From Neocallimastix sp. 'constans' (Eukaryota), in the NCBI GenBank assembly GCA_050613775.1, contig JBODTK010000131.1:248001-312000 (forward strand): a DNA stretch of 64,000 nucleotides. The letters are read 5' to 3'. How positions within the stretch are numbered: the stretch's first letter is position 1; every line of letters starts with the position of its first letter. Position numbers and translations under genes: made by a program. Below are positions 1,898-54,853 of this stretch, piece by piece. The notes under the pieces are model-generated. The model saw only the letters and a list, made by a program, of their open reading frames with translations. It searched no databases and was not told the origin of the DNA.

Positions 1898-4800
1898 TGT
1901 TAACTTTATTAATATAAAGTTATATTCTAGCTTAGGTTTAATAAAATATTAAATTAAATTATATTAAATACATTGTAATCATAAATTAAATATAAATTAA
2001 TATGTATCTAGAACAAGCCACAATTAAATATAAATACATGTAATTTTCTCTGTACTTTAAATCTTTGTTAACCATTTATTTATATTCTATAAATAATAAA
2101 TTTATATTAATTAATAAAACAAATTTTAATAGATTAAGAGTCTCAAGCAACCGAAAATGTCTGACAGCGCTGAATGTTTCGTTTACAAGGGTTCCAACTT
2201 CAAAATGTGGAAAAAGCTACTCATTAACATTTTGAAAGCCAAAGATCTCTCTGATTACGCCACAACCAATATTTTCAATGAAGCCGATAGAGACCATGAA
2301 AACTTTGGGGAAATTGATAAAAACAACTCAAAGATTGTTGCCATTAACATCAAGTCTGTGGATGAATCAATTTATCAAGATATTGAGGATTTAGAATCTG
2401 CTTTTGATATGATCAAGAAACTGGAAGAGATTAACCAAGAGGCAGATGAACTAATTGTAGAGAAATTAATAAAGAAACTGAAAATTATGAAGCCTCGAAA
2501 CTATATGGAAGTTTTAAAATGTTTATCTGACATGTTAAACACTTTTAACAAACTTAAAACCGCCAATTACGATATGAGTGAAAATGACAAGATCCAATAT
2601 ATGTTCAAGGCGCTACCAAAGGAATTACAAATTGCTTTCCTGCCTGAACCTGGTAAAACAGCTGAAGAATATTATGATCTCATCAAATCAAGAAATATAT
2701 TTATTAGATGCATGAATGAACAAAAAATAATCAAGCCACAAATTAACCATAATAATCGTAACAATTATAATAACTACGATGATCCCATGGATTTAGACCT
2801 AGTATTTAACAGAAATAATAGGTATAAAAGCCACAGACAAAATAATTCTCAACGAAGAATTCCAAATAAATACTGCCATATTTGTAACCAACGTGGTCAT
2901 TTAACAAATGAATGCCATTACAACGGGAGAACAAACGGAGCCATGAATCAAACTAAATTTAATAATAATAATAATAATGACTATAATAACAGATTTAATA
3001 ACAATAATTATAATAATAATAAATTTAATAATAATTATGATAAAAATAATAATAAAAATTATAAAAATAATAATAAAAATTATAATAAAAATTATAATAA
3101 AAATTATAAAAATCGTAATAATTATATTAATAACATTGAAAATAACAATTTACCTGTTGATTATGATGATGACATAAATTATGAAAATTTAAGTCACATG
3201 ATTAACAATAGTCTTGATAGTGTTGAATTTTTAAATAACTTAAATAAATCTACTCATAACCTTAATAATTATAAAAATGATAAAAATAAATTAAATAAAA
3301 ATTTTAATAATAATCTTAATAATTATGAAAGTAAAAATAATAATTTACATAAAGAACTTAATAATGATATAAATTACACTAATAATTCTAATTATATTAA
3401 TAATTATGATAACAATAACAATTGCCCTACTAATGACAACAACGAATCAACTTGGATCTATGATTCTGGTGCAATTGTTCATATTACAAATGACCGAAGT
3501 TTATTAACTAACTTTAAAAAATACAAAATTAATTTAACATGTGCCAACAATTCTGAAATGGAATTCGAGGGATTTGGTACATACAAAGGCTCAATTAACG
3601 GTTATGACATTACTTTAAGTAAAGTATTTTATTCTAGGCACGCAAACAAAAATTTAATTAGTGGTATACAATTTGCCTACACTGAACTAATATCAATTAC
3701 TAAACTTATTAACAATGAGCCACATCTTATCATTACGGATAATGATAATAATATTATTAATACTTATAGCTCAATTGATGGAAGAAACACATTTAGAATC
3801 AAAATAAACAATAAATATAATAACTTAATTATGAACACCGATAATGATAATCTTTGGCATAGAAGACTTGGTCACTTCTATCACAAAGATTTATCAAAAT
3901 TTATAAAGGAACACACCACAAGTCATAATAACAATGACAATAATTGTATTACTTGTGGAATGGCTAAAATGAAAAGGTTACCTCACAACAGGGTAACTCC
4001 TAAAGCTACCAAGTTATTAGATGTTATCCACTCCGACATTGTTGGTCCTTTCCCGGATTCATTTTTTGGTTTTAAATTCATCATTACTTTCATTGATGAA
4101 TTCTCTAGGAAAGCCTGGATTTTTACTATGAAAAGAAAATCAGATGCCATCGATATTATTATTAATTTTTTCAAATATTTAAATAATATTTTTCCAAATA
4201 ATAAAATTACTAATTTCAAATCGGACCAAGGAAAAGAATATTGTAGTAGAAGAGTCAACAAATTCTGTAAAAAGAATGGTATTAGAAAACTCTATTCTCC
4301 TCCAAGAAATCCTCAAAATAATGGAATTGCTGAACGATTTAATCAAACCATTCTTTATTCCCTAAAATGTTTATTAAGCTGGAGTAAACTCAACATTAAA
4401 TTTTGGGATTTTGCTATACGTTATTCAAAATATCTTTATAATCTTACTCCTCATTCAGGAATAAATAATCAAATTCCCAATGAAGTATTTTATGGTACTC
4501 CCATTCATGTTAATCATATTAAAGTTTTTGGATGCATCACTTATTATAAGGATTTCTCTCCCAAGAAAGGAAAATTAGATCCTAATGCTAAAAAAGGTTT
4601 TTTCTTAGGTTTCAGTAATGATTCTAATTCTTATTTAATAATGGACTATAATAATTTTTCTCTACATCAAGTAAGAGAAGTATTATTTCAAGAAGACACC
4701 CCTGCCTGCATTACTAAAGATATTACAAAAAGAATTTCGCCTTATGTTAAAGACAATAATAATAAATTAAATTTATGTTTAGATTTATCTTTTATCAACA

Positions 4801-5153
4801 AATTATTAAGCAATTATACAAATAATAATATACATAATAATAATGATATCAACAACAATTATGACAATAATGACGATAATTATTTTATTCCTGACAATAA
4901 TAATATCATTAATATTCCTGATAATCCATCTAATAATATTAATATTCATAATAATATTCCTAATAATAATATTAATAATAATAATTATAATAATAATTCT
5001 CCTGATGATTATAATGTTAATAATAATAACTTTAACAATAATTTAAATATTGATAATTATAATATTTCATATCAAAATAATGAAAAATTTTTAATTAATA
5101 AAAATTTGTCAAAAAATGAACAAAATTTAAATTATAATTTCAATAATAATTTT

Positions 5154-5198
<45 letters not shown>

Positions 5199-7175
5199 TT
5201 AATATACGATAAAAATTTTTCAAATAATTTTATTAATTCTAATAACAATAATTTTATTGGCTCAAAAATTCAATACAATGGTAAAAATTTTTCTGATACA
5301 ATAAATTCTGAATTTAATCAAAATTTAGAAAATTTTAATCAAAATACAAATACCAATACAATAACCAATGAAAATTTTTCAAACACCAAAAATTTCTCTA
5401 ATCCAAATTATGTACAAAATTCTAATAATAAAAAATTTTTAATTAATGAAAATTTTAATTCAAAAAATGATCAAAATTTTATTAATAAAAATAATAATAA
5501 TATTAATAATTTTATTAATAATAATTCAAATAATAATAACATAAATATTTATAGAAATAATAAAAGAAAATCCAAATTTTCCAATAATAATATTATTAAA
5601 CACTTCAAACCTAATATTAATAATAATAATATTGATATTTACAATAATAATAATAATCATAATAATATTATTTCTTATAATAATAATCCTAATAATTTTA
5701 ATTACAACAATGATAATTTAATTAATACTATTGAAACTGAAAATGAAGAAGTTCCGAAAACCTATCAAAAAGCTCTCAATTGTGATCATGCCGATGAATG
5801 GGATATTGCTATCCAAGAAGAACTCAAAAATTTATATGATAATAATACAATGACTTTTGTTAAAAAACTACCAAGAGGAAAACAACCAATTTCTACAAGA
5901 TGGGTTTTTGCAATTAAAAAGGATGCAAATAATAAAATTATTAAAAGAAAGGCCAGACTTGTTGCAAGAGGTTTTGCTCAAAGATACGGTATCGATTATG
6001 AACTTACATATAGTCCGACATTAAACGTTGATTGTATAAAATTACTTCTCGCTTTTGCTGCTCAATTTCAATGGACTGTTTATCAATTAGATTTTAAATC
6101 TGCCTATCTAAACGCCGCCTTAGATAAAGAAATTTACACCGAAATTCCTTACGGCGATGAAAACTACGGTAAAGGCTATTGGATTCTAAATAAGGCATTG
6201 TACGGCCTTAAACAATCAGGCCGCCAGTGGAATAAAACCATTACAAAATTTTTAACCGAAAACAAATTTCATCAATCCACCACTGATCCATGTGTTTTCT
6301 TTAAAAAGCAGAAGGAAGAACTAACTTGTATTATAGGACTTTATGTTGATGATATGCTAATTATAGGTGAAAATTTCGAAATTGTTAGAATTGTTTCAAG
6401 AATTAAAGATAACTTTAAGGTATCAAAATGTGGATTTGCTGACTTCATATTAGGAATCAAAATAGAAAGAGAAAATAATGATATTTATATCTCACAAGAA
6501 GCATTCATTGATAATCTATTAAATAAATATAGTATAAATAATAAAAAGAAAATAAAATCACCATGTTCAGTAAATGAAAATAATGAAGATAATGAACCTG
6601 TTGACAAAATAAAATTCAAAAGTATTATCGAATCCTTAATTTATCTTGCAAGATGCACACGTCCAGACATTGCATTTGCTGTTAACTTTGCCGCTAGAAA
6701 ATCAGAAAATCCAACTCAAGCCGATTGGAAAAAAGCTATTAAAATATTAAAATACTTAAATGGAACAAAACATTATAAAATAAGATATGACGGTAAAGGT
6801 AAAATAAATGCACATACAGATTCAGATTTTGCCGGTAATCCAAATGATAGAAAATCTACTTCAGGACACATTATCTTAATGGGTACAAATCCTATTTCAT
6901 GGTATTCTAAAAAACAAACAACTGTCGCAACGTCTACTGCCGAAGCTGAATATTTAAGTACTACAGAATGTATTAAGAAAGTATTACAAATTAAAAATCT
7001 ACTTTATGAATTATTTGGAGAAACTGAAACTATAGACATATACACGGATAATGAAGCAAGCAAAAGTAGCATTGAAGCAGGTCATTTAAATCCAAAGCTT
7101 AGACATATTAGTGTTAGCTACCATTTCAACAATGAAAATATATTAAATAAAAATGTTCAACTAAAATATATTAGA
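1898..7175 (+). mobile_element. Ty1/Copia LTR retrotransposon, 3'-truncated (5' LTR ~1898-2131; no PPT or 3' LTR seen)
   Basis: The LTR starts TGTTAA and ends TTAATA, followed by a PBS and a single gag-pol ORF. RNase H is cut before the ADxxTK motif and runs into a (TTTTTATA)n tract. Confidence 0.9.
2132..2145 (+). promoter_or_regulatory. Primer-binding site complementary to the anticodon arm (positions ~27-40) of tRNA-Lys(CUU)
   Basis: GATTAAGAGTCTCA lies directly after the LTR end. Its reverse complement is TGAGA-CTCTTAA-TC, a stem strand plus a 7-nt loop with anticodon CTT. Confidence 0.75.
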
Positions 7176-7196
7176 ATTTTTATATTTTATATTTAA
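2157..7196 (+). CDS. Copia gag-pol polyprotein (Gag, Zn knuckle, protease, integrase, RT, RNase H) with long Asn-rich linkers
   Basis: Motifs in Copia order: CHICNQRGHLTNEC, WIYDSGA, LWHRRLGH, HSDIVGP..SDQGKEY..NGIAER, KARLVARGF, LYVDD, DSDFAG..RKSTSG, STAEAEY. Confidence 0.97.
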
Positions 7197-8431: not shown

Positions 8432-9730
8432 TTAACTTAATAAATACTTTATTAATTCTATATTTCCATTTTTACATGCAATTAATAATGGGGTGTCTCC
8501 ATCTTTATTTTTCTTATTGATATTCATTCCATAATGAATCAATTTTTTAACTTCTTCAATATTACCTTGCTTACATTCAGAGGTTAATAAGGTTTCATTA
8601 TTATCTCTTTTCTTCTTAATTTTTTCAATTATATAATTCTTCTTTTCCAATTTTTTTTCTTCTTTTTCCTCTTTTTCTATTCTCAGTAATTCCAAATCTT
8701 TTTTTATTTTTTCTTTCTCTTTTTTTTCTTTTTCCAATTCTATTTCTGTTATTTCATTTTCAATTTCTAATACTTCATAATCCCTATTTTCATTTTCTAT
8801 TCTTTCATTCTTATTAAATTCATTAAATTTTTTCAAAAAGTAACTGTTTCTGCTGAATATTACTTCAATTATATTTTTATTTTTACAAAAATTGATTAAT
8901 TCGATAAATTTAGAATTTATTTCTGAAATATTCTTTAATTTACAAAGCGGATATTTTTTCGAAATCATATTTTCAATATCATTTTCATCAATTCTTAATT
9001 TTATTTCTTTTTCTATGGAATATTCCACCAGCAATTTAAACATTTCAATATTATTATTTTGTATTGCCCCAAATATTGGAGTATATCCATCTTCATTTTT
9101 TTCATTTAATTTCAAAATAATTTTATTTTTATTGGCATAATCTATTAACAATTGAACCATTTCAACATTATTGTAATAAGTGGCAACTAAAAGTGGATAC
9201 CATCCATATTCATTTTTTTCATTTAATTCTAAAATAATTTTATTTTCAGTGGCATAATCTATTAACAATTGAACCATTTCAATATTATTACGATTAGTGG
9301 CTTGTAAAAGTGGATACCATCCATATTCATCTTTTTCATTTAATTCCAAAATAATTTTATTTTCAGTGGCATAATCTATTAACAATTTAACTATTTTAAT
9401 ATTATTATTATCAATGGCTTTTAAAAGTGGATAATAATTTTCATAAAAAAGTGGATACCATCGATATTTATTTTTTTCATTTAATTCTAAAATAATTTTA
9501 TTTTCAGTGGCATAATCTATTAATAATTGAACCATTTCAATATTATTACAAGAAGTGGCATATAAAAATGGATAATTTCCATCTTCATCTTTTTCATTTA
9601 ATTCTAAAATAATTTTATTTTCTGTGGCATAATCTAAAATAGTTTTTACTTTTTGAGTATTGCCACTTCCAATTTCCTTATTAAGTTCTTCTTTCAAATC
9701 TTTTTTACTTTTATCAATAAATAAATCCAT
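8432..9730 (-). CDS. Ankyrin-repeat protein with a Lys/Glu coiled-coil segment
   Basis: Repeated YPLLxA..NNIEMVQLLIDYA..LNEK units and a C-terminal GDTPLLIACKNGNIELIKYLL. Confidence 0.9.
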   Translation of the reverse strand: MDLFIDKSKKDLKEELNKEIGSGNTQKVKTILDYATENKIILELNEKDEDGNYPFLYATSCNNIEMVQLLIDYATENKIILELNEKNKYRWYPLFYENYYPLLKAIDNNNIKIVKLLIDYATENKIILELNEKDEYGWYPLLQATNRNNIEMVQLLIDYATENKIILELNEKNEYGWYPLLVATYYNNVEMVQLLIDYANKNKIILKLNEKNEDGYTPIFGAIQNNNIEMFKLLVEYSIEKEIKLRIDENDIENMISKKYPLCKLKNISEINSKFIELINFCKNKNIIEVIFSRNSYFLKKFNEFNKNERIENENRDYEVLEIENEITEIELEKEKKEKEKIKKDLELLRIEKEEKEEKKLEKKNYIIEKIKKKRDNNETLLTSECKQGNIEEVKKLIHYGMNINKKNKDGDTPLLIACKNGNIELIKYLLS

Positions 9731-10349
9731 AATTTTTAAATTTTTTTTTATTACTATTCAATTATTATTTTTTATACTTTTTTATATATATTTTTTTTTT
9801 GAAGTTTCTAATAAAAGAATGAAATTATTTATAATTTATGTTTAATTTTTTTTTATAATTTATTATTAAAATTATTATTATTATTTTTTTTTTTTATTAA
9901 ATTATTTTATGAATTTAAAAAAAAAATTTTTTTTTTTCTTTTTATACTAATAAAAATAACTTAAAAAAATTTTTTTAGTTCCATTTTTTATTTTTTTTTT
10001 CCATTTTTTTTAAATTTTTATTTAAATAAGTAAAAAAAAAAATTCAAAAATTTGGAACTAAAATCAAAAAATTTTAATTTTTTTAATTTTTTTATTTCTA
10101 TTTTTATTATTTAAATTAAATGAATAAATATAATGTAATATATTATTATTATATATAATATATATTAAAGTATTATTTACATATATTATAAATTAATATT
10201 ATTTTAAATTCTTTTATTGAATTTTATATCAATAAATAAATGAATATATTATAATACATTACAATATATATTAAAATATTTACATATTTAATAAATTATT
10301 TTTATTTTAAATTCTTTTAATTGCTATAAATAAAAAAAGGATTAAGAAT

Positions 10350-11715
10350 TAATAATAAATAATAAATAATAAATAATAAATAATAAATAATAAATAATAA
10401 ATAATAAATAATAAATTATAATAAATAAATAAATAATAAATAATAAATAATAAATAAGTAATAAATAATAAATAATAAATAATAAATAATAAATAATAAA
10501 TAATAAATAATAAATAATAACTAATAAATAAATAATAAATAATAAATAATTAAATAATAAATAATTAAATAATAAATAATAATAATATATAATAAATAAT
10601 AATTGAATAATAAATAATAACTAATAAATAATAAATAATAATAATATATAATGAATAATAATTGAATAATAAATAATAAATAATAAATAATAAATAATAA
10701 TAATATATAATGAATAATAATTGAATAATAAATAATAAATAATAAATAATAAATAATTGAATAATAATAAAAATAATTAAATAATATAATAATAAATAAA
10801 TAATGAAAAGAGTATTTATTAATGAATAATAAATAATAAATAATTGAATAATAAATAATAAATAAATAATAAATAATAAATAATTAAATAATAAATAATT
10901 AAATAATAAATAATAAATAATAAATAAATAATAAATAATTAAATAATAAATAATTAAATAATAAATAATAAATAATTGAATAATAAATAATTAAATAATA
11001 AATAATAATAATATATAATAAATAATAATTGAATAATAAATAATAACTAATAAATAATAAATAATAATAATATATAATGAATAATAATTGAATAATAAAT
11101 AATAAATAATAAATAATAAATAATAATAATATATAATGAATAATAATTGAATAATAAATAATAAATAATAAATAATAAATAATAAATAATAAATAATTGA
11201 ATAATAAATAATAAATAAGTAATAAATAATAAATAATAAATAATAAATAATAAATAATAAATAATAAATAATAAATAATAACTAATAAATAATAAATAAT
11301 AATAATATATAATAATAATTGAATAAAAAATAATAAATAATAAATAATAAATAATAAATAATAAATAGTAAATTAATAATAATATATAATAAATAATAAT
11401 AATATATAATAAATAATAATTGAATAATAAATAATAAATAATAAATAATAAATAATAAATAATAAATAATAAATAATAAATAATAAATAATAAATAAAAA
11501 ATAAATAATAAATAATAAATAAATAATAAATAAATAATAAATAAATAAATAATAAATAATAATAATATATAATAAATAATAATTGAATAATAAATAATAA
11601 ATAATAAATAATAAATAATAAATAGTAAATTAATAATAATATATAATAAATAATAATATATAATAAATAATAATATATAATAAATAATAATTGAATAATA
11701 AATAATAAATATAAT
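10350..11715. repeat. Long degenerate (AATAAAT)n microsatellite
   Basis: Directly visible in the sequence. Confidence 0.95.
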
Positions 11716-12632
11716 AATGATAACATAAATTGTATTTTTTTTATTTTTTTAAAATATTTTATCTTTTTCTTTCATAATAGATTTTATTTAAAGAGAGAGT
11801 ATAATAAAATGAAAATATTTTCTAATTCAATCATTTTAAATTTAATTTTATTTTTCAGAGACATAAATTCTATTAAAATATTAATTATTTCAATATTTTT
11901 ATAAATAATTGATGATAAACCGTTGACATCATCCATATTCATATTCATATTTTTATTTGTATATTTATTTATTTTACATTTTATTTTGTAATTCTACAGG
12001 AGTTTGTATTATATAAAGTTTATAATGATAAAATTATAAATAAAAAAAAAACATCTTTTCACTTTGAAATTTTTGAAAAATGGGAAAAAAAATATACATG
12101 GATATTTATTTATAGAAGTGAATGATTAAAATATAAAAAATTAAAATAAAAAACAATTAAATAAAACCAAAATGAGATGTAAAAAAAAATAAAATAAAAT
12201 AAAATTTTAAAATAAAAAGCCTATTAAATTTATATATTTATGGTTATATTTAAATATTTTAATTATAAAAAATTATTAAATAACAACACATCAAAATAAA
12301 AATTAATAAAAAAAAAATATTTTAAAATAAAAATAAATTTTTTTTAAATATAATTTTTTTTTAAATATAATTTTTTTTTTGTTCTTAATTTTTTATTTAA
12401 TTATGAAAAAAAAAATTTTTACATTATTATCTATAATAGAAGAATTTTTAATAAATTCTGTTGTAAAAAAAAAAAATTATAATTTCTAATTATTTTTTAT
12501 AATAAATAAAATAAAATAAAAATATAAAGAAAAGGGTTTTTTAAAATAAAAATAAAAAATTATAATTTCTAATTTTTTTTTATAATAAATAAAATAAAAT
12601 AAAATTATGAAGAAAAGGGCTTTATAAAATAA

Positions 12633-21705: not shown

Positions 21706-22900
21706 TTATATTTATATATAATTTTTTTTTTTTTTTTTATATAATTTAAATATATATATATTTATATATTTATTTATATTTATATTTAATATTTATATTT
21801 ATATTTATATTTATATTTATATTTATATTTAATATTTATATTTATATTTAATATTTATATTTATATTTATATTTATATTTAATATTTATATTTATATTTA
21901 TATTTATATTTATATATTTATTTATTTATTTATATTTATATTTATATTTATATTTATACTTATTTATAATTTTATATTATTTTTTTTTTCAAAAATTAAA
22001 ATAAATAATAAATAAATAAAAAAAAATTAATCATTTTACAAATTATGTTTAGGAATGCTTCCTTCATATCATTCAGGATGCAAAGAAGCAAGGAAAAAAG
22101 TTGTGTTGAGCGAAATAAGCGACGAAGAGGCTCTAGAAAAAGCAAGTGAAATCTATGACGTGGCTTTGGAATTACAAAAAGCAGGGCAGACTTGTACAGC
22201 ATTGTTAAAATTTGAAGAGGCTTTTTTTGGAGAAAAATCTGCAGTGCCGTCGTCAGAAAAATTATATGGCACTTTTCGTGAGTGTCTTTTAAAAAATGAA
22301 TTAGTTGATAGTTGTTTTGTTTCTGTGCTGAAGAATTCTTTTATTTCTGCTGCCTCTTCCTCCATAGCTTCAATTTTTATGCAACAGGGACAATATCTTG
22401 AAGCTGCCTTTTGGTATGGTGTATCCTATGTAAATGGAAACTCCTCGGCTAGAAACTCATTTGATACCGCGGTGACTTATTACAATAGTTCTACTCACGC
22501 TAAGGGAGAGTAAATTTGTATACTAAATTAATCATTCTTTTGTTATTCATGTTTGTTGGCAGGCGTTCGTTAACCTTAGATCCTTTTATGGAATATGTAA
22601 AGGTTTATTTTAAAGAAGGTTATTCAAATGTGTACTCCTACGTTAGTTACACTTTTAGTTAAGGAAGAGGGTATAATAATTGAAAGTAATAGTTTTTATA
22701 TTTATTTATTTTTTTTTTTTTTTTTTTAATACAAAAAATAAAAATAAAAAATAAATAAATAAATTAAAATTAATTGAAATGATAATTAATTTACAAGCAA
22801 AAAACATTAGAATTTAAATAATTTTCAACTCAACATTAAAAATATTTCATTTCAATTTTTTATTTTTTTATTTTATTTTTTTTATTTTATTATTTATTTA
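21706..22900 (+). repeat. Right arm of the inverted duplication
   Basis: Reverse complement of ~700-1897. Confidence 0.9.
22055..22513 (+). CDS. Hypothetical 152-aa protein (copy 2)
   Basis: Identical to copy 1 except for one G>R change (FGEC vs FREC). Confidence 0.55.
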   Translation: MLPSYHSGCKEARKKVVLSEISDEEALEKASEIYDVALELQKAGQTCTALLKFEEAFFGEKSAVPSSEKLYGTFRECLLKNELVDSCFVSVLKNSFISAASSSIASIFMQQGQYLEAAFWYGVSYVNGNSSARNSFDTAVTYYNSSTHAKGE

Positions 22901-23512
22901 TTTTTATTTATTATTTAAATTTATTTTTTATTATTTATTTATTATTTATTATTTTTATTTATTTATTTATTTTTTTTTTTTTTTTAATCTTCATCCTGAA
23001 GTATGGTATTTTATTTTTCATTTTAAGAATAATGTAAACTCTGAACATTAAACTATTTTTTATCATTCAAGTATTTTTATATATAAATATATATATAAAA
23101 GTATTATTTTTTTTTTTTATTTATTAATTAGAAAAATTAATGTAGAAGTTATAGTTTTTTTTAAAAAAAAAAATTATAAATTACATAAATAAAAAAAGAA
23201 TTTATAATAATATTAAAAATAAATATATATATATGATATTTTTAATTTTAGATACTCAAATAAAAAATATTTATATATATGTATTACATTGAATTATAAT
23301 ATATAAATTTAAACACTTTTTAATACAAGTTTGGATAATTCAAAATTAATAATAAGAAATAAAAAAATATAGAAATAAATAGAAATTAATAAATAAACAT
23401 AATAATATTTTAATAAAAGAAATAATTTTAATTGAATAAACTAAATTTATAAAGAAAAGCCTTAAATAAAAAATATAATTAGTTAGGTAGTAAAGATAAT
23501 TTATGGAAGTTG

Positions 23513-37400: not shown

Positions 37401-38250
37401 ATTTATTATTTTATTTTATTAATTATGTGATTTAGAATTATCTTTATTCAATATTTAGTTTCTCTCTATTAGAGTAGTAGTAATGCTCTTGAAGGATTAG
37501 TTTTATCTATTTCCAATATGTAAACTTCTTATAAAAATTGATCTTTTTATTGAGAAGAAAAGTTAGAAAAAAGAAAAACGCAAGATTTCTAATTTTTTGA
37601 AGTATTATTTATTTTTGAAGTATTTCATCTAAAGTATTTTTTAGACATAAAGAAAAAATGTAAAAATACTAATGGCTGAACTAATTTATTATGTCTATTT
37701 ATTTCTTTGTTGTGGCGCATTATTATAAAATGTGGCGCATTATTAAAATAAAAGAATTATGATTTTAATTATGAGAAATGCATTACATATAAAATTATAA
37801 ATAAATTAAATAAAATTTAATTATTAATATTTTTTATAAGATAAAGATTCATATTAAAAATAGAAATAAAAATATATTATAAAATATTTTTTTATATTTT
37901 GGACATAAATTATTTTTTTTTAATAGATTGAATATGATTGAATTTCTCTTTGTTTTACTTTATTTCCTTTTTTTTTTTTTATTCCAATCATCTCATATAT
38001 AATTATAAATATTTATATTTTGCATTATATATTTGATTTTAATTAAATGAATTAAAAATATAATATAAAAAAATTTTTTTTTTATTAATTTAAAAAATAT
38101 AATAATATATATTTTATAATAATATATATTTTAAATAAATAATAGCTTTTATAATTATCAATTATATTTATTAAAATAAAAAATAATTTTATATTATAAA
38201 GAATAAATTAGAAAAAATAATAATAAAACACAGTATAAAATACAATTAAT

Positions 38251-40710
38251 ATGAATAACCGTGAAAAGAAGAGAAATATAAAATCTGAAGATTATAATAA
38301 TAATGGACATACGTCTAAAAGATTAAAAACTCTAACAAATGATCAAGAAAATGATAAATATATTACTTCTTCTGAAATAAAAGAATTAATAAAGAATTCA
38401 AATTTAAAGAAATTAAAAAATATTTTTAATATTTCAAAGTTTTATGATGATGAATTTATTAAACGTTTACTTTTTCTATATAAAAATAAAACTCCTACCA
38501 AGAATTTAAATTATGAAATTTCTAAAAATAAATATAAAATTAAATTAGATTTTAAAAGATGGTATGATTTTTCCATAATTGATACTTATTTAATTGAAAA
38601 TGGAAATAAAAATTTATTAAAATTTTTAGTAAAACATGGAGTGGATACAAAAAAAATATTTTATAAGGATAATGAAATACTTTTATTTGATGTGTGTGAA
38701 AGTGGAAATAAAGATTTAGTAGAATTCTTAGTAGAAAATGGAGCAGATATAAATGAAGAAAGTGATTATGGTACAACACCATTATTTTATGCATGTGAAA
38801 GTGGAAATAAAGATTTAGTAGAATATTTAGTAGAGCATGGAGCAGATATAAATAAAGAAACTGAAGATGGTGAAACACCATTATTTTATGTCTGTGAAAG
38901 TGAAAAAAAAGATTTAGTAGAATATTTAGTAGAGCATGGAGCAATAATAAATAAAGAAAATGAATATGGTAAAACACCATTATTCAACGCATGTAAAAGC
39001 GGAAATAAAGATTTAGTTGAATATTTGGTAGAACATGGAGCAGTTATAAATAAAGAAATTAAATACTGTGAAACACCATTATTTTATGCCTGTGAAAGTG
39101 GAAATAAAGATTTAGTTGAATATTTAGTAGAACATGGAGCAATTATAAATAAAGAAAATAAAAATGATGAAACACCATTATTCAGCTCATGTAAAAGCGG
39201 AAATAAAGATTTAGTTGAATATTTGGTTGAACATGGAGCAGTTATAAATAAAGAAAATAAAAATGGTGAAAGACCATTATTCAACGCATGTAAAAGCGGA
39301 AATAAAGATTTAGTAGAATACTTAGTAGAAAATGGAGCAGATATAAATAAAGTAAATAAATACGGTAAAACACCACTATTTTATGCCTGTGAAAGTGGCA
39401 ATAAAGATTTAGTTGAATATTTAGCTGAACTTGGAGCAGATATAAATAAAGAAAATAAATATTGTGAAACACCATTATTTTATGCCTGTAAAAGTGGAAA
39501 TAAAGATTTAGTTGAATATTTAGCTGAACTTGGAGCAGATATAAATAAAGAAAATAAATATTGTGAAACACCATTATTTTATGCCTGTAAAAGTGGAAAT
39601 AAAGATTTAGTTGAATATTTAATTAAACATGAAGCAGTTATAAATATGGAAGGTGAATATGGTATAACACCATTATTAATAGCAATTATTAATAAAAATA
39701 AAGATTTAGTAGAATACTTAGTAGAAAATGGTGCAGATATAAATAAAGAAAATGAAGATGGTGAAACACCATTATTTAAGGCAATTGGATATAAAAATAA
39801 AGATTTAGTAGAAATATTAGTAGAAAATGGAGCAAATATAAATAAAAAAAATAAAGATGGTGAAACACCATTATTTAAGGCCTGTGAAACTAAAAAAAAA
39901 AAATTAGTAGAATACTTAGTAGAAAATGGAGCAGATATAAATAAAGAAAATAAATATGGTAGAACACCATTATTTAAGGCCTGTGAAAGTGGAAAAAAAG
40001 ACTTAGTTGAATATTTGGTAGAACAAGGAGCAGATATAAATAAAGAAAATAGAGATGGTGAAACACCATTATTTAATGCCTGTGAATTAGAAGATAATGA
40101 TATAATAGAAATATTAATAGAAAATGGAGCAGATATAAATAAAGAAAATAGAGATGGTGAAACACCATTATTAATAGCAATTATTAATGAAAATAAAGAT
40201 TTAGTAGAATACTTAGTAGAAAATGGTGCAGATATAAATAAAGAAGATAAAAGTGGTGAAACACCATTATTAATAGCAATTAGCAGTGGAAATAAAGAAT
40301 TACTAGAATACTTGGTAGAAAATGGTTCAGATATAAATAAAGAAAATAAAGATGGTGAAACACCATTATTAATAGCAATTAGAAGTGAAAATATAGATTT
40401 ATTAGAATACCTAGTAGAAAATGGAGTAGATATAAATAAAGAAGATAGAAATGGTGAAACGCCATTATTTATAGCAATTGAATTAGGAGCAAAAGATTTT
40501 GTAGAATTCTTAGTTGAACATGGAGCAGATATAAATAGGGAAAATAAATTTGGTGAAACACCATTATTAATAGCAATTAGCGATGAAAAAAAAGAATTAC
40601 TAGAATACTTAATAGAAAAAGGAGCAAATATAAATAAAAAAAATAGAAATGGTGAAACACCATTTTTAAAAGCAATTGAATTAGGAGCAAAAGATTTGCA
40701 GAATACTTAG
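38251..40710 (+). CDS. Ankyrin-repeat protein (about 21 repeats of 33 aa); ends at a frameshift, with decayed repeats continuing to ~41165
   Basis: GETPLFxAC.SGNKDLVEYLVEHGADINKE repeats throughout. Confidence 0.93.
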   Translation: MNNREKKRNIKSEDYNNNGHTSKRLKTLTNDQENDKYITSSEIKELIKNSNLKKLKNIFNISKFYDDEFIKRLLFLYKNKTPTKNLNYEISKNKYKIKLDFKRWYDFSIIDTYLIENGNKNLLKFLVKHGVDTKKIFYKDNEILLFDVCESGNKDLVEFLVENGADINEESDYGTTPLFYACESGNKDLVEYLVEHGADINKETEDGETPLFYVCESEKKDLVEYLVEHGAIINKENEYGKTPLFNACKSGNKDLVEYLVEHGAVINKEIKYCETPLFYACESGNKDLVEYLVEHGAIINKENKNDETPLFSSCKSGNKDLVEYLVEHGAVINKENKNGERPLFNACKSGNKDLVEYLVENGADINKVNKYGKTPLFYACESGNKDLVEYLAELGADINKENKYCETPLFYACKSGNKDLVEYLAELGADINKENKYCETPLFYACKSGNKDLVEYLIKHEAVINMEGEYGITPLLIAIINKNKDLVEYLVENGADINKENEDGETPLFKAIGYKNKDLVEILVENGANINKKNKDGETPLFKACETKKKKLVEYLVENGADINKENKYGRTPLFKACESGKKDLVEYLVEQGADINKENRDGETPLFNACELEDNDIIEILIENGADINKENRDGETPLLIAIINENKDLVEYLVENGADINKEDKSGETPLLIAISSGNKELLEYLVENGSDINKENKDGETPLLIAIRSENIDLLEYLVENGVDINKEDRNGETPLFIAIELGAKDFVEFLVEHGADINRENKFGETPLLIAISDEKKELLEYLIEKGANINKKNRNGETPFLKAIELGAKDLQNT

Positions 40711-44419: not shown

Positions 44420-44711
44420 TTATTAATTAATATATAAATAACCATAAAAACTTTAATTATTAATAAAATTATTTTATTACTCATTCACATAAAAATAAAT
44501 TAATAATACAATAATTAATTCATTTGATTAATTATCACTTGATTTATAAGTTGATATGAAAATAACATGATACAAAATAAATTTATGTATTATTATAAAT
44601 TTTATACAAACACATAAATTTTATGTTATGTAAATATAAATAATTTAAAAATGTAGAAAAGTTTTTTTTTCGAGTGTGTGTGTGTCATTTGGCAAAATTT
44701 TAATAAATAGA
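44420..44711 (-). mobile_element. Diverged reverse copy of the TCTATT/CGAAATG repeat
   Basis: The minus strand reads a|tctatttattaaaattttgccaaatgacacacac...attttattaataattaaagtttttat. Confidence 0.7.
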
Positions 44712-45045
44712 TAAATAAATAATAAAATAAATAAAATAAATAAAATAAAAAATAAAAATAAAAAAATAAAAAATAAAAAATAAAAAAATAAAAAAATAAA
44801 AAAATAAAAAATAAAAAAATAAAAAATAAAAAATAAAAAAATAAAAAATAAAAAAATAAAAAAATAAAAAATAAAAAATAAAAAAATAAAAAAATAAAAA
44901 AATAAAAAAATAAAAAAATAAAAAATAAAAAAATAAAAAATAAAAATTAAAAAATTAAAAAATAAAAAAATAAAAAATAAAAAAATAAAAAAATAAAAAA
45001 ATAAAAAATAAAAAAATAAAAAAAAATAAAAAAATAAAAAAAATA
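44712..45045. repeat. (A5-7T)n microsatellite
   Basis: Directly visible in the sequence. Confidence 0.95.
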
Positions 45046-46391
45046 GATAACACCTAAAATCATTTTAATTTTGTGCTACTTTTAACTTCCTTTTTTTTTA
45101 AATGTTCTCATCTTTTTTTTTTTTTTTTTTTTTTTACTGGATTTTATAAATATTTTTACTGAATTTATAAATATTTCTTTTATTAAAAAAATTTATTAGT
45201 AATTTAAGATTTTTTTAATATACTGCGCAAAGACTTAAAAGGTGTAAAATGATCAATTAATTATTTAGATATTATTTTTTAATCTTTATAATAATTATTT
45301 TTAATTATTTTTAATTTTAATAGTTATATTTTTAATTATTATCCTTTACATCTTTTAAATTATTAATACTTATTTATATATATATATAAAATTATTATTA
45401 ATCATATATATTTATTGAAATATTATAAAACGTTTAAAATGTATGATAAAATATTTTATTTTTTTAAAGCTTTAATTCTAATGAATATTTATTATTATAT
45501 AATGTTATTTTATATATTTTTTTTCTTTTTTCTAAAAACTTAATTTTAAATTTATTTATTTATTTATTATAGTTTTATTTATTTATTTTTATTTATTTAG
45601 CTATTTATTTAAATTATATACATTATTTATTTGTTTTATTATTAATTTATTTATTTATTAACTTTTTAAAAAAATTTTGCGAAATGAAACTTTTCCAAAA
45701 TGAAATCTTGCACCTCCCCCTTTATTTTCATTTTAATTATTTTATTTTATTATATTTTTATTATATCCTTATATGTTATAATTATTATAAATATTTTATC
45801 ATTTATATTACTCTTTTTATAATATTTAATTAGATAATTAATTCCTATTATTTTAAAATAGTTTATAACTAAATAGTATTATATGAAGAATACTTATTTA
45901 TATGTTTATTCTTTGTAACAGCGTTTTTATCATTTTAAATATTTATTTTTATTATATGAAACTCATTTAATGATATTAGCAATATGAACTTATAAAAAAG
46001 AATAAATACATAAATGAATAAAATTATATTAATACATAACATAAATAATTTATAGACCTTTTCCCAAGAAGAGATAAAACGAACCAGAGTTATATCATAG
46101 AGTAATTAATAATAATATTACCTTTAAAAAAAAATAAATATTCATAAGAAAAAAAATAAAGAACATCTTTATTAAATAAAAAAAAAAACTATTATTCCAA
46201 TAAATATTATATATTATTTGATCCTATCTTATTAATATTTTATTTTATTGAATAATATTTTAAATTTTTTATTCAATAATTTATTTCCTTTTTATGGTAT
46301 AAAAAAGTTATTTGAATAGTAATAATAATTAATAAAAATAAATAATGAATTAAATACTTTATATGGTTAGGACTTCACACATTCTTTCATT

Positions 46392-48380: not shown

Positions 48381-50844
48381 TTACCAACATTTTCCATAAT
48401 GGGATTGACATCCAGAACTCTTTTTACAATACTTTGTGGAAGTACCACAGTAACCATACTTACTACAGCATTCACCATGAAGACATTTGCCATAATTTTT
48501 ACCACATCTTCCATTATTAGATTTACTAATAGCTTTCTTAGTAGTGGTCTTAGTAATGGTCTTCTTTGCTATGCAGGTTCCAAATTCTGATTGACAGCCT
48601 TCACTTATATTACAGTATTTACTAGAAATTCCACACCAACCATATTTACTACAGCATTCACCTTTTGGACATTTACCATATTTACTACCACATCTTCCAT
48701 TAGTACTAATAACTTCATTACATTTACCAAATTCTGATTGACAACCTGCTCCACAGTACTTTTCACTCTTGCTACACTAACCATACTTACTAAAGCAGTA
48801 TCATTCGATACATCTACCAAAACCTTTACCACATCTGTCAGTGTTTCCTTCAATTTCACTTTTACAAGTACCATAGTCAGATTGGCAACCCTTATCTATC
48901 TTTCAATATTTATCAGATTTTCCACACCAACCATACTTACTACAACAGTATCCTTCAGCACAGCTACCTATACCTTTACCGCATTGTTCTGGAATTATCG
49001 TTCTGGAAGTATCAGTACATTCACCATATAGAGGTTGGCAACCATTCTTGACATCGCAATACTTCTCAGATTTTCCACACCATCCATACTTGCTACAGCA
49101 TAAACCTTCTGCATAGCTACCAATTCCTTCACCACATTTCCATGGATCACGAGTTTGCTGATCTTCTTCTTCACTTGGTTGATCTTCTCCTTCATTTGGT
49201 GGTTTTTTTTCAGTTGGTTGTCTTTCAGTTGGTTGTCTTTCAGTAGGTTGATCTTCTTCTTCAGTTGAATCTTCATTTTCTTCTTCTTTTTCCTTATTTT
49301 CTTCTTCATTTTCTACTTCTTCTTCTTTATTTTCTTCTTTTTCTTCTTCTTCCTTACTTTCTTCTTCTTCTTCATTTTCTTCCTCTTCTTCTTCATTTTC
49401 TTCTTCATTTTCTTCTTCTTCCTCTTCTTCTTTTTCTTCTTCTTCATTATTTTCTTCTTCTTCATTTTCTTCTTCTTTTTCTTCTTCTTCCTTATTTTCT
49501 TCTTCTTCATTATTTTCTTCTTCTTCTTCTTCATTTTCTTCTTCTTTTTCTTCTTCTTCCTTACTTTCTTCTTCTTCATTATTTTCTTCTTCTTCATTAT
49601 TTTCTTCTTCCTCTTCCTCTTCTTCCTTATTTTCTTCTTCTTCCTCTTCTTCATTTTCTTCCTCTTCATTTTCTTCCTCTTCTTCTTCATTTTCTTCTTC
49701 TTTTTCTTCTTCCTTTTCTTCTTCTTCTTCTTTTTCTTCTTCTTCATTATTTTCTTCTTCTTCATTATTTTCTTCTTCTTCTTTATTTTCTTCTTCTTCT
49801 TCTTCCTCTTCTTCCTTTTCTTGTTCTTCCTCTTCATTTTCTTCTTCTTTTTCTTCTTCTTCCTTACTTTCTTCTTCTTCATTGTTTTCTTCTTCTTCTT
49901 CTTTTTCTTCTTCTTCCTATTCATTTTCTTCTTCATTTTCTTTTTCATTTTCTTCTTCTTCTTCTTTTTCTTCTTCTTCCTTACTTTCTTCTTCTTCATT
50001 ATTTTCTTCTTCTTCTTCTTCTTTTTCTTCTTCTTCCTATTCATTTTCTTCTTCATTTTCTTTTTCATTTTCTTCTTCTTCTTCCTTTTCTTGTTCTTCC
50101 TATTCATTTTCTTCTTCATTTTCTTTTTCATTTTCTTCTTCATTTCTTTCTTCTTCTTCATTTTCTTCTTCTTTTTCTTCTTCTTCATTTTCTTCTTCTT
50201 TTTCTTCTTCTTCTTTTTCTTCTTCTTCTTTTTCTTCTTCTTCTTTTTCTTCTTCTTCCTTTTCTTCTTCTTCTTCTTCTTCTTCTTCTTTTTCTTCTTC
50301 TTCCTTTTCTTCTTCTTCCTTTTCTTCTTCTTCCTTTTCTTCTTCTTCTTGTTCTTCCTATTCATTTTCTTCTTCATTTCTTTCTTCTTCTTCATTTTCT
50401 TCTTCTTCTTCTTTTTCTTCTTCTTCCTTACTTTCTTCTTCTTCATTATTTTCTTCTTCTTCTTCTTCTTCTTCATTTTCTTCTTCTTCTTCTTCTTCTT
50501 CCTTTTCTTCTTCTTCTTGTTCTTCCTATTCATTTTCTTCTTCATTTCTTTCTTCTTCTTCATTTCTTTCTTCTTCTTCATTTTCTTCTTCTTCTTCTTT
50601 TTCTTCTTCTTCTTCTTTCTTCTTCTTCATTTTCTTCTTCTTCTTCTTCATTTTCTTCTTCTTCTTCTTCTTCCTTTTCTTCTTCTTCTTGTTCTTCCTA
50701 TTCATTTTCTTCTTCATTTTCTTTTTCACTTTCTTCTTCATTTCTTTCTTCTTCTTCATTTTCTTCTTCTTCTTCTTTCTTCTTCTTCATTTTCTTCTTC
50801 TTCTTCTTTCTTCTTCTTCATTTTCTTCTTCTTCTTCGTCATTT

Positions 50845-50876
<32 letters not shown>

Positions 50877-53042
50877 CTTTTCTTGTTCTTCCTATTCATT
50901 TTCTTCTTTTTCTTCCTTTTCTTCTTATTCTTCCTTTTCTTCTTCTTCCTTTTCTTCTTCTTCTTGTTCTTCCTATTCATTTTCTTCTTCATTTTCTTCT
51001 TCCTTTTCTTCTTCTTCCTTTTCTTCTTCTTCTTGTTCTTCCTATTCATTTTCTTCTTCCTTTTCTTCTTCTTCTTGTTCTTCCTATTCATTTTCTTCTT
51101 CATTTTTTTCTTCATTTCTTTCTTCTTCTTCATTTTCTTCTTCTTCTTCTTTATTTTCTTGTTCTTCCTCTTCTTGTTCTTCCTCTACTTGTTCTTCCTC
51201 TTCTTGGTTATTTAAAATTACTTTTAAAAAAATATTAATAATATTTTTTATTTTTATATATTATTAATACTTACTAGCTATTTATATAAAAAAATTTTTA
51301 TTATAAAAAATCATTATTAATTATATATTTAAAATATTGATAATAAATATATATATATGATGATATTTAAAAATTAATTTCAAAAAATTTTAAATAATGT
51401 ATTTAAATACATATTTATACTTACCATCTATTAATATAAACCAATTTTTTAATATAAATTTAATAACAACGAAATATGTAAAATAGATATAATTGATATA
51501 TGTTAATTATAAATTAATTTGAAAAATTTGTAATAATATATTTACATTAAATACATATTTTTACTTACTATCTATATATATATGAAACAATTTGTTGAAT
51601 AATATTAATGAAATATTTTAATAATTAATAATAAATATATGTTATTTACAAATAAACTTCAAATTTTTAAATAATATGCTTAATTATTTATACTTACGAG
51701 CTAATTTATATAAATCAGTAAATTATATATATTAAATTAATAATAATTAAATTGTTTAAATAATTAAAATAAATATTTCTTATCTTTAAACTGATTTCAA
51801 AAATTTTAATTATATCTAAATATAAATTTAAACTTACGTCCTATTAATATATAACAATTTGTTTTTTAAAAATTAAAATAATTAATTATTCGAATGATCA
51901 TTAATATATATAAATTATTTAAAATTAATTTCAAATAATTTTAATATTATATTTATAAATATATATTTATACTAACCAACTTTATATGAAATAATTTTTT
52001 GTATTAAATGTATGATAAAAAAATATTATAATAATACGTAATAAATATTTGTTTTTTTGCAATTACTTTCAAAAAATATTTATAATATTTTTTTATATAT
52101 ATTTATACTCACTAGCTATTTATATAAAACAATTTCAAATATAAATATTTATAACAATTAAATATTTTAATAATTGATAATAAATATGTTATTTACAATT
52201 AATTTCAAAAATATTTAATAATATACTAAAATATATTTATACATACCAGCTATTTATATAAAACAATTTAAAAAATAAAAATTTATAATAATTAAATATT
52301 TGAATAATTGATAATAAATATACGTTATTTATGATTAATTTTAATAGTTGTTAATAATATATTTATATATATATATATTTAAACTTACTTCCTATTTAAG
52401 TGAAACAATTTGTTGATTATAATTTAAAATAATAAATATTTGAATAATTGACAATAAATATAAGTATGAAATAATTTTTTGTATTAAATTCATAATAAAA
52501 AATATTACAATAATACGTAATTAATATATATATATTATTTTTCTTTTTTTTTTTTTTTTACAATTACTTTCAAAAAATATTTATAATATTTATATATATA
52601 TATATATTTATACTCACTAGCTATTTATATAAAACAATTTCAAATATATATATTTATAACAATTAAATATTTGAATGGTTAATAATAAATATATGTTGAT
52701 GATAATTACTTTTAAAAAATACTAATTATATATATATTTATTTATTTATATTATTTATATATACGGCCTATTTAAATGAAACAATTTGTTGATTATAGTT
52801 TATAATAATAAATATTTGAATAATTGACAATAAATATTAAATATGAAATAATTTGTGGTATAAAATTTATAATAATTATATTTAAAATATAAAAATATAT
52901 AATAATTAAATATTTGAATGGTTAATAATTTTTAATTTTAAATTAGTATAATATAAAAAAAATAATAATAATAATAACTTATATTTTTAATTATTTTAAT
53001 AAATTACTTGCTTGAAATAATAGCAAGAAAAACCCTGTACAT
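48381..53042 (-). pseudogene. Secreted-type chitin-binding protein gene: short exon 1 (53042-53012), eleven 3-nt micro-exons, and a large exon (51220-48381) encoding a ~2 kb Glu-rich tract plus five CBM18/hevein domains; disrupted as assembled
   Basis: Five RCG..G.C..G.CCSKYGWCG....C...GCQS.(Y/F)G.C units lie at ~48385-49145, ending KCW-TAA at 48381. In-frame stops occur in domains 2-3 and indels in the (GAA)n tract. Splice signals are listed in the findings. Confidence 0.85.
49265..51205 (-). repeat. Coding (GAA)n-rich low-complexity tract (poly-Glu with N/K/Q interruptions)
   Basis: TTC repeats on the plus strand with higher-order units. These explain the spurious poly-S/L/F/K ORFs. Confidence 0.95.
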
Positions 53043-53069
53043 TTTATTTTATTTTATTATTTATTTAAA

Positions 53070-54853
53070 AAGCATTTAGAGGAGCGAATAGAGTTTATAT
53101 ACAGAGTTAGAAGAATTGTCTTCTTTAGTGTTGTACTCGACGAATAGATTTGGTTCTAGACTAGGTAAAACTCTATAAGAGAGCACCGTAGCCTATTATA
53201 AAGGAAAACGGTTCTAGGTTTGCAACAACTCTGGCAAATAAGGGGCTTACGTCACCGAAGGCGTAAGATTAAAATTATATAGTATTTTAAAATTTTATTT
53301 CGTGCTTACTCGCGGCACTAGTAATAATAGTACTGACAGTTTTTTCCGTTGTTGTGAGTCAATAGTTTTATTCTATTTTATCGATCAATAATTTTATAAT
53401 TAATATTATAATTAATATTATAATTTTATAATTAAAAAAAAAAGATTAAAATATAAATATAAGGTTTATACGACTTCCAAAGCGACAGAAGTTGGTCTCT
53501 GTTTTCGTAACATTTTAGTGTTCAGATACTATTGATATAGGGGAAAATAATTTGTTTTATTCATTTCAGCTAACAATAAATTAGATATAATAAAGAATCT
53601 AATAATATTACTTCCTTTTGTCTATAAGACATTAACAATCGATTTTATCTGCGTTATCACTAAATGGCTAAAGGAACTTATCGTATAAAACTTTGATAGA
53701 TTATATATTAAGTTAATCCAATACTATATAATCTAGTTTATATTTCAGTAATTTTTGATAAATTATTATAAAATAGGAATATTTAATTATAAAATATTAT
53801 AAAGTGTTATTAAAATTTTGTGTTCTTATCTATTAACCTTGGAGACCTACCAATAAACTACTTTTGAACTTTTGGAATTTTTGCTACTTATCTACTACCT
53901 TTTGGATTATTGGAATCTGTACTATCATTTTGGGAACTTCTGGATTCTAACGCCTAATATTTACCTTTGAAAACTTATTCTACTCTACCTTATCAATTTC
54001 AATATGGACAACAATAACCATGAAATTCCTATCTTTAAGGACGGTTTTGCTGGTGATCGTCGATTCTTTAAAGGATTTCTAGTTAAAATGGGAACTAATT
54101 TTTATGATTCAACCGGAAAGATTTGCAAACGATGAAGCTAAAGTAATTTATATCATTTCTCGCTTGTATGGAAACGCCATGAATCGGGCAGCTACTCTTA
54201 TTGAAAACCAAGATCCTTGTCTCCTTAATTATAATCAGTTCATTGCTAGACTAAAATCAGTATTTGGAAGCTATGATTCTACCTTTATTGCCAACCAGAA
54301 ATTAAGAACAATCAAACAAAGACGAGTTGGTGAAGTCAGGAATTATATTTTAGAATTTAATAAATACCCCGATGAATCTTCTTGGAAAGAAGAAGCTAAG
54401 ATGGACACCTTTCTTGCCGGTCTACATGACCATATTGCTACTAGAATTTTAGAAATGTTTCCTGGACCTCAATCCCTCTTTACTATGCAAACAATAGCGT
54501 CTAGAATCGATAATCGTATTTCTACTCATAGACAATTCTCCAATTTCCAAGGTCAAAATTCATATAATAGTAATAATAATAAAATTAAAAAGGGGAAAAA
54601 ATCATTCTTTTTCAAAAACAATCTAAATCCAAATCTCGTGGTCCTCTATCTCAAGAAGAAAAGGAAAGAAGAAGAAGAAATAATCTTTGTTTATATTGTG
54701 GATCCTCTGAACATTCTCTCGACAATTGTCCACTTAAAAATAAATACAAAAATAAATCTTTATCAAGTAGCACTTATATTTCTAATCCCGAATCAAAACC
54801 AATATCTAGACCAAGAATTTCTTATCCTTCTCAGACTGTGGAAAATTTCTTAG
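53070..54853 (+). mobile_element. Gypsy 5' portion: partial LTR (ends ...GTAACA at ~53512), leader and frameshifted gag
   Basis: Retrotransposon-gag motifs QPERFANDEAKVIYIISRLYGNA..ANQKLRTIKQ..YILEF, and Zn knuckle LCLYCGSSEHSLDNCP in a shifted frame. Confidence 0.85.

Follow-up and report, generated by a model that had tools for sequence, protein, structure and literature searches.

Arrays of codon-sized micro-exons have been described in the nank (NACHT-ankyrin) genes of Tuber melanosporum, and extensive alternative splicing has been reported for them (Iotti et al. 2012, PMID 22289772, as conveyed by the citing papers PMC4986451, PMC10197012, PMC13449251, and PMC3689799). Where one of these papers (PMC13449251) treats such arrays in fungi, it credits them only to truffle NLR-like genes and calls them lineage-specific. 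Another group of genes with very small exons is found in Schistosoma. In the sections of two papers that deal with these micro-exon genes (MEGs; PMC4350168 and PMC10526429), a signal peptide is followed by very small symmetric exons, and skipping of these exons is proposed to create a pool of similar secreted proteins. MEG exons are given there as 3 to 81 bp, separated by long introns; together they constitute the bulk of the coding region, and such genes are said to occur in flatworms only. Our literature search, which did not reach most subscription papers, including that of Iotti et al. 2012, found no report of micro-exons in Neocallimastigomycota and none of a gut-fungus array.

Here, we analyzed a 64,000-nucleotide stretch of the genome of Neocallimastix sp. 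'constans' (contig JBODTK010000131.1, positions 248,001 to 312,000), referred to as “the window” and numbered from its first letter. An array of 3-nt units flanked by splice signals runs along its minus strand. Our reading of the locus, to which we give a probability of roughly 0.6, is that eleven likely phase-1 micro-exons lie in an anaerobic gut fungus gene that is likely dead and would have coded for a secreted CBM18 protein. Tuber nank, as that system is portrayed in the citing papers, and the window array have in common a long series of 3-bp exons within a single fungal gene, proposed to diversify the protein; at the DNA level, all 11 units of the window are consecutive 3-nt units with splice signals. 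The lineage is Neocallimastigomycota rather than an ascomycete, and the neighbor of the array is a CBM18 repeat protein only, without NACHT and ankyrin domains in the same gene. Ankyrin frames do occur in the window, at least 10 kb from the array, the nearer one (38239-40710) on the other strand. The window array is likely read in phase 1 rather than as one codon per exon and belongs to a broken copy; it is known from DNA alone, whereas the citing papers relay splicing for the nank arrays. With the Schistosoma MEGs it shares very small symmetric exons, which here would follow a putative signal peptide of a likely secreted protein. It differs from them in that all of its units are 3 nt long, its introns are short tandem duplicates, and only about 11 residues are involved; small exons do not make up most of the coding region, given that the array supplies 33 nt beside an intronless part of about 2.8 kb comprising a Glu-rich tract and CBM18 repeats. 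The array appears to function, or to have functioned in the past, in the manner of a nank-type array of codon-sized micro-exons without belonging to a nank gene. The architecture is known from Tuber nank, but its occurrence in Neocallimastigomycota is new, as are the reading in what is likely phase 1 and the pairing with a likely secreted chitin-binding protein.

The array and the gene around it

Eleven AG-NNN-GT units follow one another on the minus strand from 52767 down to 51275. Their triplets, in order, are GCC (unit 1, 52765..52767), CTA (unit 2, 52618..52620), GAA (unit 3, 52389..52391), CTG (unit 4, 52247..52249), CTA (unit 5, 52113..52115), TTG (unit 6, 51977..51979), GAC (unit 7, 51838..51840), CTC (unit 8, 51698..51700), ATA (unit 9, 51569..51571), ATG (unit 10, 51425..51427), and CTA (unit 11, 51275..51277). 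Nine of the 11 triplets are distinct, and T is absent (0 of 11) from their third positions, which read C, A, A, G, A, G, C, C, A, G, A. Rereading the sequence gave the same eleven units, triplets, and T-free last bases as the initial annotation had described. The acceptor is TAG in 10 of the 11 units and AAG in unit 6, and the donor is GT(A/G/T)(A/T)GT in 10 units and GTATAT in unit 1. A three-unit search pattern matched four times in the window and not once in any of 100 shuffles. The triplets are also GC-rich relative to the introns, as had been claimed, with G or C at 15 of 33 positions versus about 9.5% (P = 9e-8). Judged by these features of the sequence, the units are likely real micro-exons. 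No strong branch-point motif was found at a fixed distance in the array introns.

These introns are 126 to 147 nt long, apart from two of 226 and 244 nt, have 7 to 11% G+C, and are mutually homologous, with alignment z-scores of 5 to 15 for most pairs and −1 to 4 for most pairs that involve intron 1. The latter is a GC..AG intron of 244 nt (52768..53011, minus strand) whose 3′ part resembles the 3′ part of intron 3; intron 3 itself, at 226 nt, appears as two units fused through the loss of one exon. Column identity across units is 0.36 in the exon versus 0.69 upstream and 0.88 downstream of it. Units 1 and 3 are alike at 62 of 65 upstream bases, yet they differ at two of three exon bases (P = 0.006).

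Contigs from two public DNA runs with different study codes (X1, which may be the source sample, and X2) cover 51215-52089 and 52114-52350 with 0 differences at a depth of 23 to 29, which rules out an artefact of assembly. Diverged contigs, which were sought at a likeness of at least 80, lie on single units. One X1 contig of 502 nt, which differs from the window at 21 letters, spans unit 4 and reads TTA there, a triplet absent from the window array, at the same depth; other contigs at this unit read GCC and are possibly cross-placed from unit 1, and unit 10 lies under a contig of 680 nt that has 17 differences. Together these sequences suggest that the same organisms carry at least one further array or allele. 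Contigs of two of nine RNA or RNA-guess runs (X16 and X18) placed only mismatched pieces of 37 to 54 nt on the array, and a low cover on the repeat described below, in a genomic placement that could not register spliced 3-nt exons. The RNA runs contain only 10 to 14% of the CBM18 words, which is no evidence of expression.

Downstream of unit 11, the donor and the 5′ half of a unit intron can be read directly (51208..51274, minus strand). This truncated last intron passes straight into a Glu-rich tract without a unit-type acceptor, which leaves adjacency and strand as what connects the array with the CBM18 exon. The tract, a GAA-rich low-complexity sequence (49269..51207, minus strand), has 11 stops, namely, ten GAA-TAG-GAA copies and one GAA-TAA-GAA, and changes frame at about 50806, 50775, and 50615; the frame slips could be assembly errors. 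The ten GAA-TAG-GAA copies (49922-51089, minus strand) suggest that the tract went on expanding after a stop had arisen. A linker and CBM18 repeats (PF00187) follow at 48381..49268 on the same strand, with three in-frame stops, two lost cysteines, and no introns. The PF00187 match spans 4 stretches and scores 106.9 bits versus a curated cut-off of 27.8, and the three stops correspond to C, G, and W in a Neocallimastix californiae relative that is 65% identical (P0122).

Those top CBM18 matches that bear names are nearly all Neocallimastix, Piromyces, Anaeromyces, or Orpsp1 proteins. Protein searches returned no close full-length relative, the best match being partial, at 66%. Multi-CBM18 proteins of Neocallimastigomycota with acidic linkers, such as N. 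californiae LY90DRAFT_404638 (ORY70871.1, partial), have tandem chitin-binding repeats at the C-terminus, as in the window, and the multi-CBM18 proteins P0036 and P0039 combine a signal-like start with a D/E-rich linker. The array-encoded peptide occurs in none of these relatives, and the window copy differs from them in having stops and no intact open frame. Among 247 relatives, none matched the predicted N-terminal peptides (best local score of 30, versus a mean best of 29 for shuffled queries).

The 5′ end of the locus is occupied by a high-copy repeat (53036..53400, plus strand), in all likelihood a Ty3/gypsy LTR, which begins with TG at 53036 if its boundary is correctly placed. In runs X1 and X2, contig depth is 2,100 to 3,400 over 53070-53400 versus 23 to 29 on the array; one high-depth contig continues for 29 unplaced letters beyond 53070, towards the ATG, and the depth data do not span the left boundary of the repeat. 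The window holds no second copy of the repeat, and no target-site duplication was found downstream in the window. Behind the repeat lies a Ty3/gypsy gag-like frame (54083..54853, plus strand; Pfam Retrotrans_gag, Ty3_capsid, and DUF4939). The ATG (53042-53040, minus strand) falls within the repeat as delimited here, at its edge, and probably belongs to the LTR, which leaves the signal peptide as earlier read insecure. Host codon usage suggests a remnant of an upstream exon at 53012..53035 (minus strand), which would end in phase 1 at a GC donor; its short hydrophobic stretch of 7 residues likely comes from a signal peptide.

The 5′ repeat, the cut-short intron, the stops and frame slips of the Glu-rich tract, and the stops of the CBM18 part make this copy very likely a pseudogene, and the gene is likely dead. 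AG and GT are nevertheless kept in 11 of 11 units, which were found by those very signals. From their order and strand, the array and the CBM18 exon were likely once one gene, encoding a secreted chitin-binding protein.

The surroundings have 4 to 33% G+C per kb and contain many copia, gypsy, and MULE elements as well as ankyrin frames. The ankyrin-repeat frames, of 823 aa (38239-40710, plus strand) and 441 aa (8432-9757, minus strand), have no link to the array. A copia gag-pol frame of 1,687 aa (2133-7196, plus strand) is apparently unbroken. Two inverted copies about 20 kb apart (678-1873 and 21720-22917), with cores that are 96 to 99% identical, each carry a 160-aa open frame without a Pfam match and an AG-C-GTGAGT motif. 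Long AT-only simple-repeat tracts of about 4 to 9% G+C occur at 10300-11800 and 44600-45100.

Similar arrays in other DNA

In 4 of the 64 parts of the JGI metagenomes, the three-unit pattern matched at least 119 stretches, which represent 117 loci; about 2,400 stretches are estimated overall. Among the matches listed, 100 of the 117 loci have at least 5 seed units, 49 pass the combined filter of low motif density and at least 4 distinct triplets, and 34 have at least 10 units; dropping the duplicates L069 and L074 left 32 clean arrays. These 32, among the matches listed, comprise 759 units, 10 to 70 per array, at a median spacing of 59 to 81 nt. Just one of the 759 triplets is a stop, versus 34.8 expected, which suggests that these arrays hold one codon per exon (phase 0). 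Units ending in T number 359 of 759 and are present in all 32 of these listed arrays, and only 1 of the 32 would be skip-proof in phase 1; in phase 0, simple stop avoidance makes them skip-proof. The long arrays are L010, L018, L032, L039, L068, L073, L015, L009, and 24 more loci. Three loci, L073, L033, and L025, would encode variable peptides rich in aromatic and charged residues.

The window array and these metagenomic arrays have in common duplicated homologous introns with hypervariable triplets; exon-column identity in 10 of the metagenomic arrays is 0.33 to 0.62, the same signature as in the window. The metagenomic arrays appear to have one whole codon per exon, whereas for the window array phase 1 is statistically favored by codon usage and third-base make-up. 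Their units measure about 60 to 80 nt, in contrast to window introns of 126 to 147 nt with about 9% G+C, and no sequence homology was found between them.

Among the matches listed, array flanks include NACHT (L075), ULD_2 ubiquitin-like (L018), and P-loop GTPase (L074 and L003) frames. At L075 (1761-4591), a 16-unit array starts 43 nt past a 546-aa NACHT / NPHP3_N frame, an arrangement like that cited for Tuber nank. The ULD_2 domain of L018 lies upstream of its array, as do, at a distance of about 1 kb, the P-loop GTPase-like frames of two other arrays (L074:1009-1332 and L003:7509-7970; weak matches to MMR_HSR1 and Arf). Pfam gave no match for 37 of 41 frames flanking the listed arrays and HET in none, and tblastn found no CBM18 in 128 loci among the matches listed. 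None of the listed metagenomic arrays is AT-rich enough for a gut fungus, and none is homologous to the window introns; this lack of gut-fungus arrays among the matches listed is weak evidence. Among those listed, the best DNA match to the window array is L055, where AT-rich sequence adjoins a microsatellite. Genome contigs and viral contigs each gave 0 matches to a two-unit pattern specific to the window array, and the generic three-unit pattern found 11 viral loci with chains of 2 to 7 motif matches.

Tolerance of skipping and the reading phase

Composition indicates that the array is likely read in phase 1, as initially annotated. In this phase, no stop arises at any of the 66 ordered junctions, and the array could in theory yield 1,904 distinct products. 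The initial annotation held that no pattern of skips can create a stop or a frameshift; the first part stands in phase 1, but keeping the frame is a property of any 3-nt exon. Its further statement that each skip removes a residue and can recode the junction agrees with our count, in which 5 of 11 single skips would recode the junction codon.

These properties might be taken to mean that the array, or its live paralogues, is a combinatorial splicing cassette selected to stay open, in which T ends are purged, junctions are recoded, and the N-terminus of secreted proteins is diversified. We consider such a cassette rather unlikely. The stop-free junctions and the recoding would fit it, as would the faster divergence of triplets than of flanks, the two extra triplets on diverged contigs (TTA and GCC), which likewise have no T end, and the extensive alternative splicing that citing papers report for Tuber nank arrays. 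A T end is harmful only when a GAA or GAC unit follows, however, because only these two can complete a stop. Given that 22% of host codons have T at position 1, the probability of no T in 11 is 0.06, and the share of skip-proof arrays is 0.23 among arrays drawn from host codons and 0.39 among base-shuffled arrays that stay open on full inclusion. Since stop-proofness is not beyond chance (P of about 0.06 to 0.39) and the units are duplicates rather than independent draws, it is no evidence of selection for skipping; moreover, no isoform was observed, and the locus is broken. The view of the missing T as a design for skipping is therefore not supported, the lack of T being within chance once phase 1 is assumed. 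For the initial annotation, frequent T-ending exons that generate stops in paralogous arrays would have counted against its view. T-ending exons are present in every one of the 32 clean arrays elsewhere (among the matches listed), but those arrays appear to be phase 0, in which a final T does no harm. The window array does tolerate every skip pattern; this most plausibly follows from the 3-nt length of its units and from phase 1, and stop-proofness here is weak evidence of anything.

The lack of T ends mainly marks the phase, in that it distinguishes phase 1 from phase 0, under which its probability would be 0.0014. Phase 0 would put G or C at 6 of 11 third positions, against 15% in the host (P = 0.003), and phase 1 at 0 of 10. 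Among six combinations of frame and donor, the remnant and array joined in phase 1 agree best with host codon usage, derived from five frames of the window of which two are transposons, and have third-position G/C in 1 of 18 codons. Phase 1 as originally counted requires a GC donor (GCAAGT at 53011) and the ATG at the edge of the high-copy repeat; because codon usage favors phase 1 independently, this phase is supported without the ATG. Phase 2 was rejected, as full inclusion yields stops and 12 of 66 ordered junctions are stops.

It is quite unlikely, in our judgment, that the array is instead read in phase 0, with one codon per exon as in other arrays from fungi, the product being a hydrophobic stretch rich in leucine. 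The near absence of stop triplets from the 32 listed arrays indicates that other arrays behave so, two open phase 0 readings of the remnant plus array exist, four different codons would be used for leucine, and TAG acceptors within the Glu-rich tract would join in phase 0. Such a reading has to accommodate G or C at 6 of 11 third positions despite a genome at 15%, as well as a complete lack of T ends (P of about 0.001), whereas almost half of the units in the listed arrays end in T; a preference at donor position −1, raised initially as a caveat, might account for the three G ends but not for the three C ends. If phase 0 were true, junction recoding on skipping would not apply. Phase 1, for its part, would make the window array exceptional, the other arrays among the matches listed being phase 0.

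It is very improbable that the units were never spliced as exons and represent an AT-rich minisatellite that amplified a splice-like motif by accident: RNA support is absent and some same-pattern matches elsewhere are plain microsatellites (L055, and L012 with 44 identical triplets), but the three bases enclosed by AG and GT are rich in G+C (P = 9e-8) and form the most variable columns between conserved flanks, the joined frame has host-type codons, and arrays of this architecture in other genomes avoid stops.

Proposed growth of the array and its meaning

Under our reading of eleven likely phase-1 micro-exons, the array would have grown by duplication of a unit made of one intron and three coding bases. 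Units would have been lost through deletions that took acceptor, exon, and donor together, leaving the double-length introns 1 and 3. The array would have encoded about 11 variable residues directly after the signal peptide, with variation arising from mutation and from reshuffling of triplets in the DNA. By analogy with what citing papers report for the Tuber nank arrays, exon skipping was probably a further source of variation.

The metagenomic matches (at least 32 clean arrays in 117 loci, among the matches listed) suggest that the codon-sized array architecture is common and under-described. Consecutive 3-nt exons strain the limit of what the spliceosome can handle, and they escape standard aligners and gene finders. 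The presence of such an array in an early-diverging gut fungus, ahead of a likely secreted protein and with introns that are longer and unrelated, would suggest that such arrays have originated repeatedly, by duplication of an intron together with three bases, and phase 1 would add the recoding of junctions. More speculatively, and with considerable doubt on our part, gut fungi may have independently evolved phase-1 arrays whose live paralogues skip units combinatorially, deleting and recoding residues to give thousands of N-terminal variants of secreted chitin-binding proteins per gene. If true, this would be a fungal counterpart of the schistosome MEGs that gene prediction has wholly missed.
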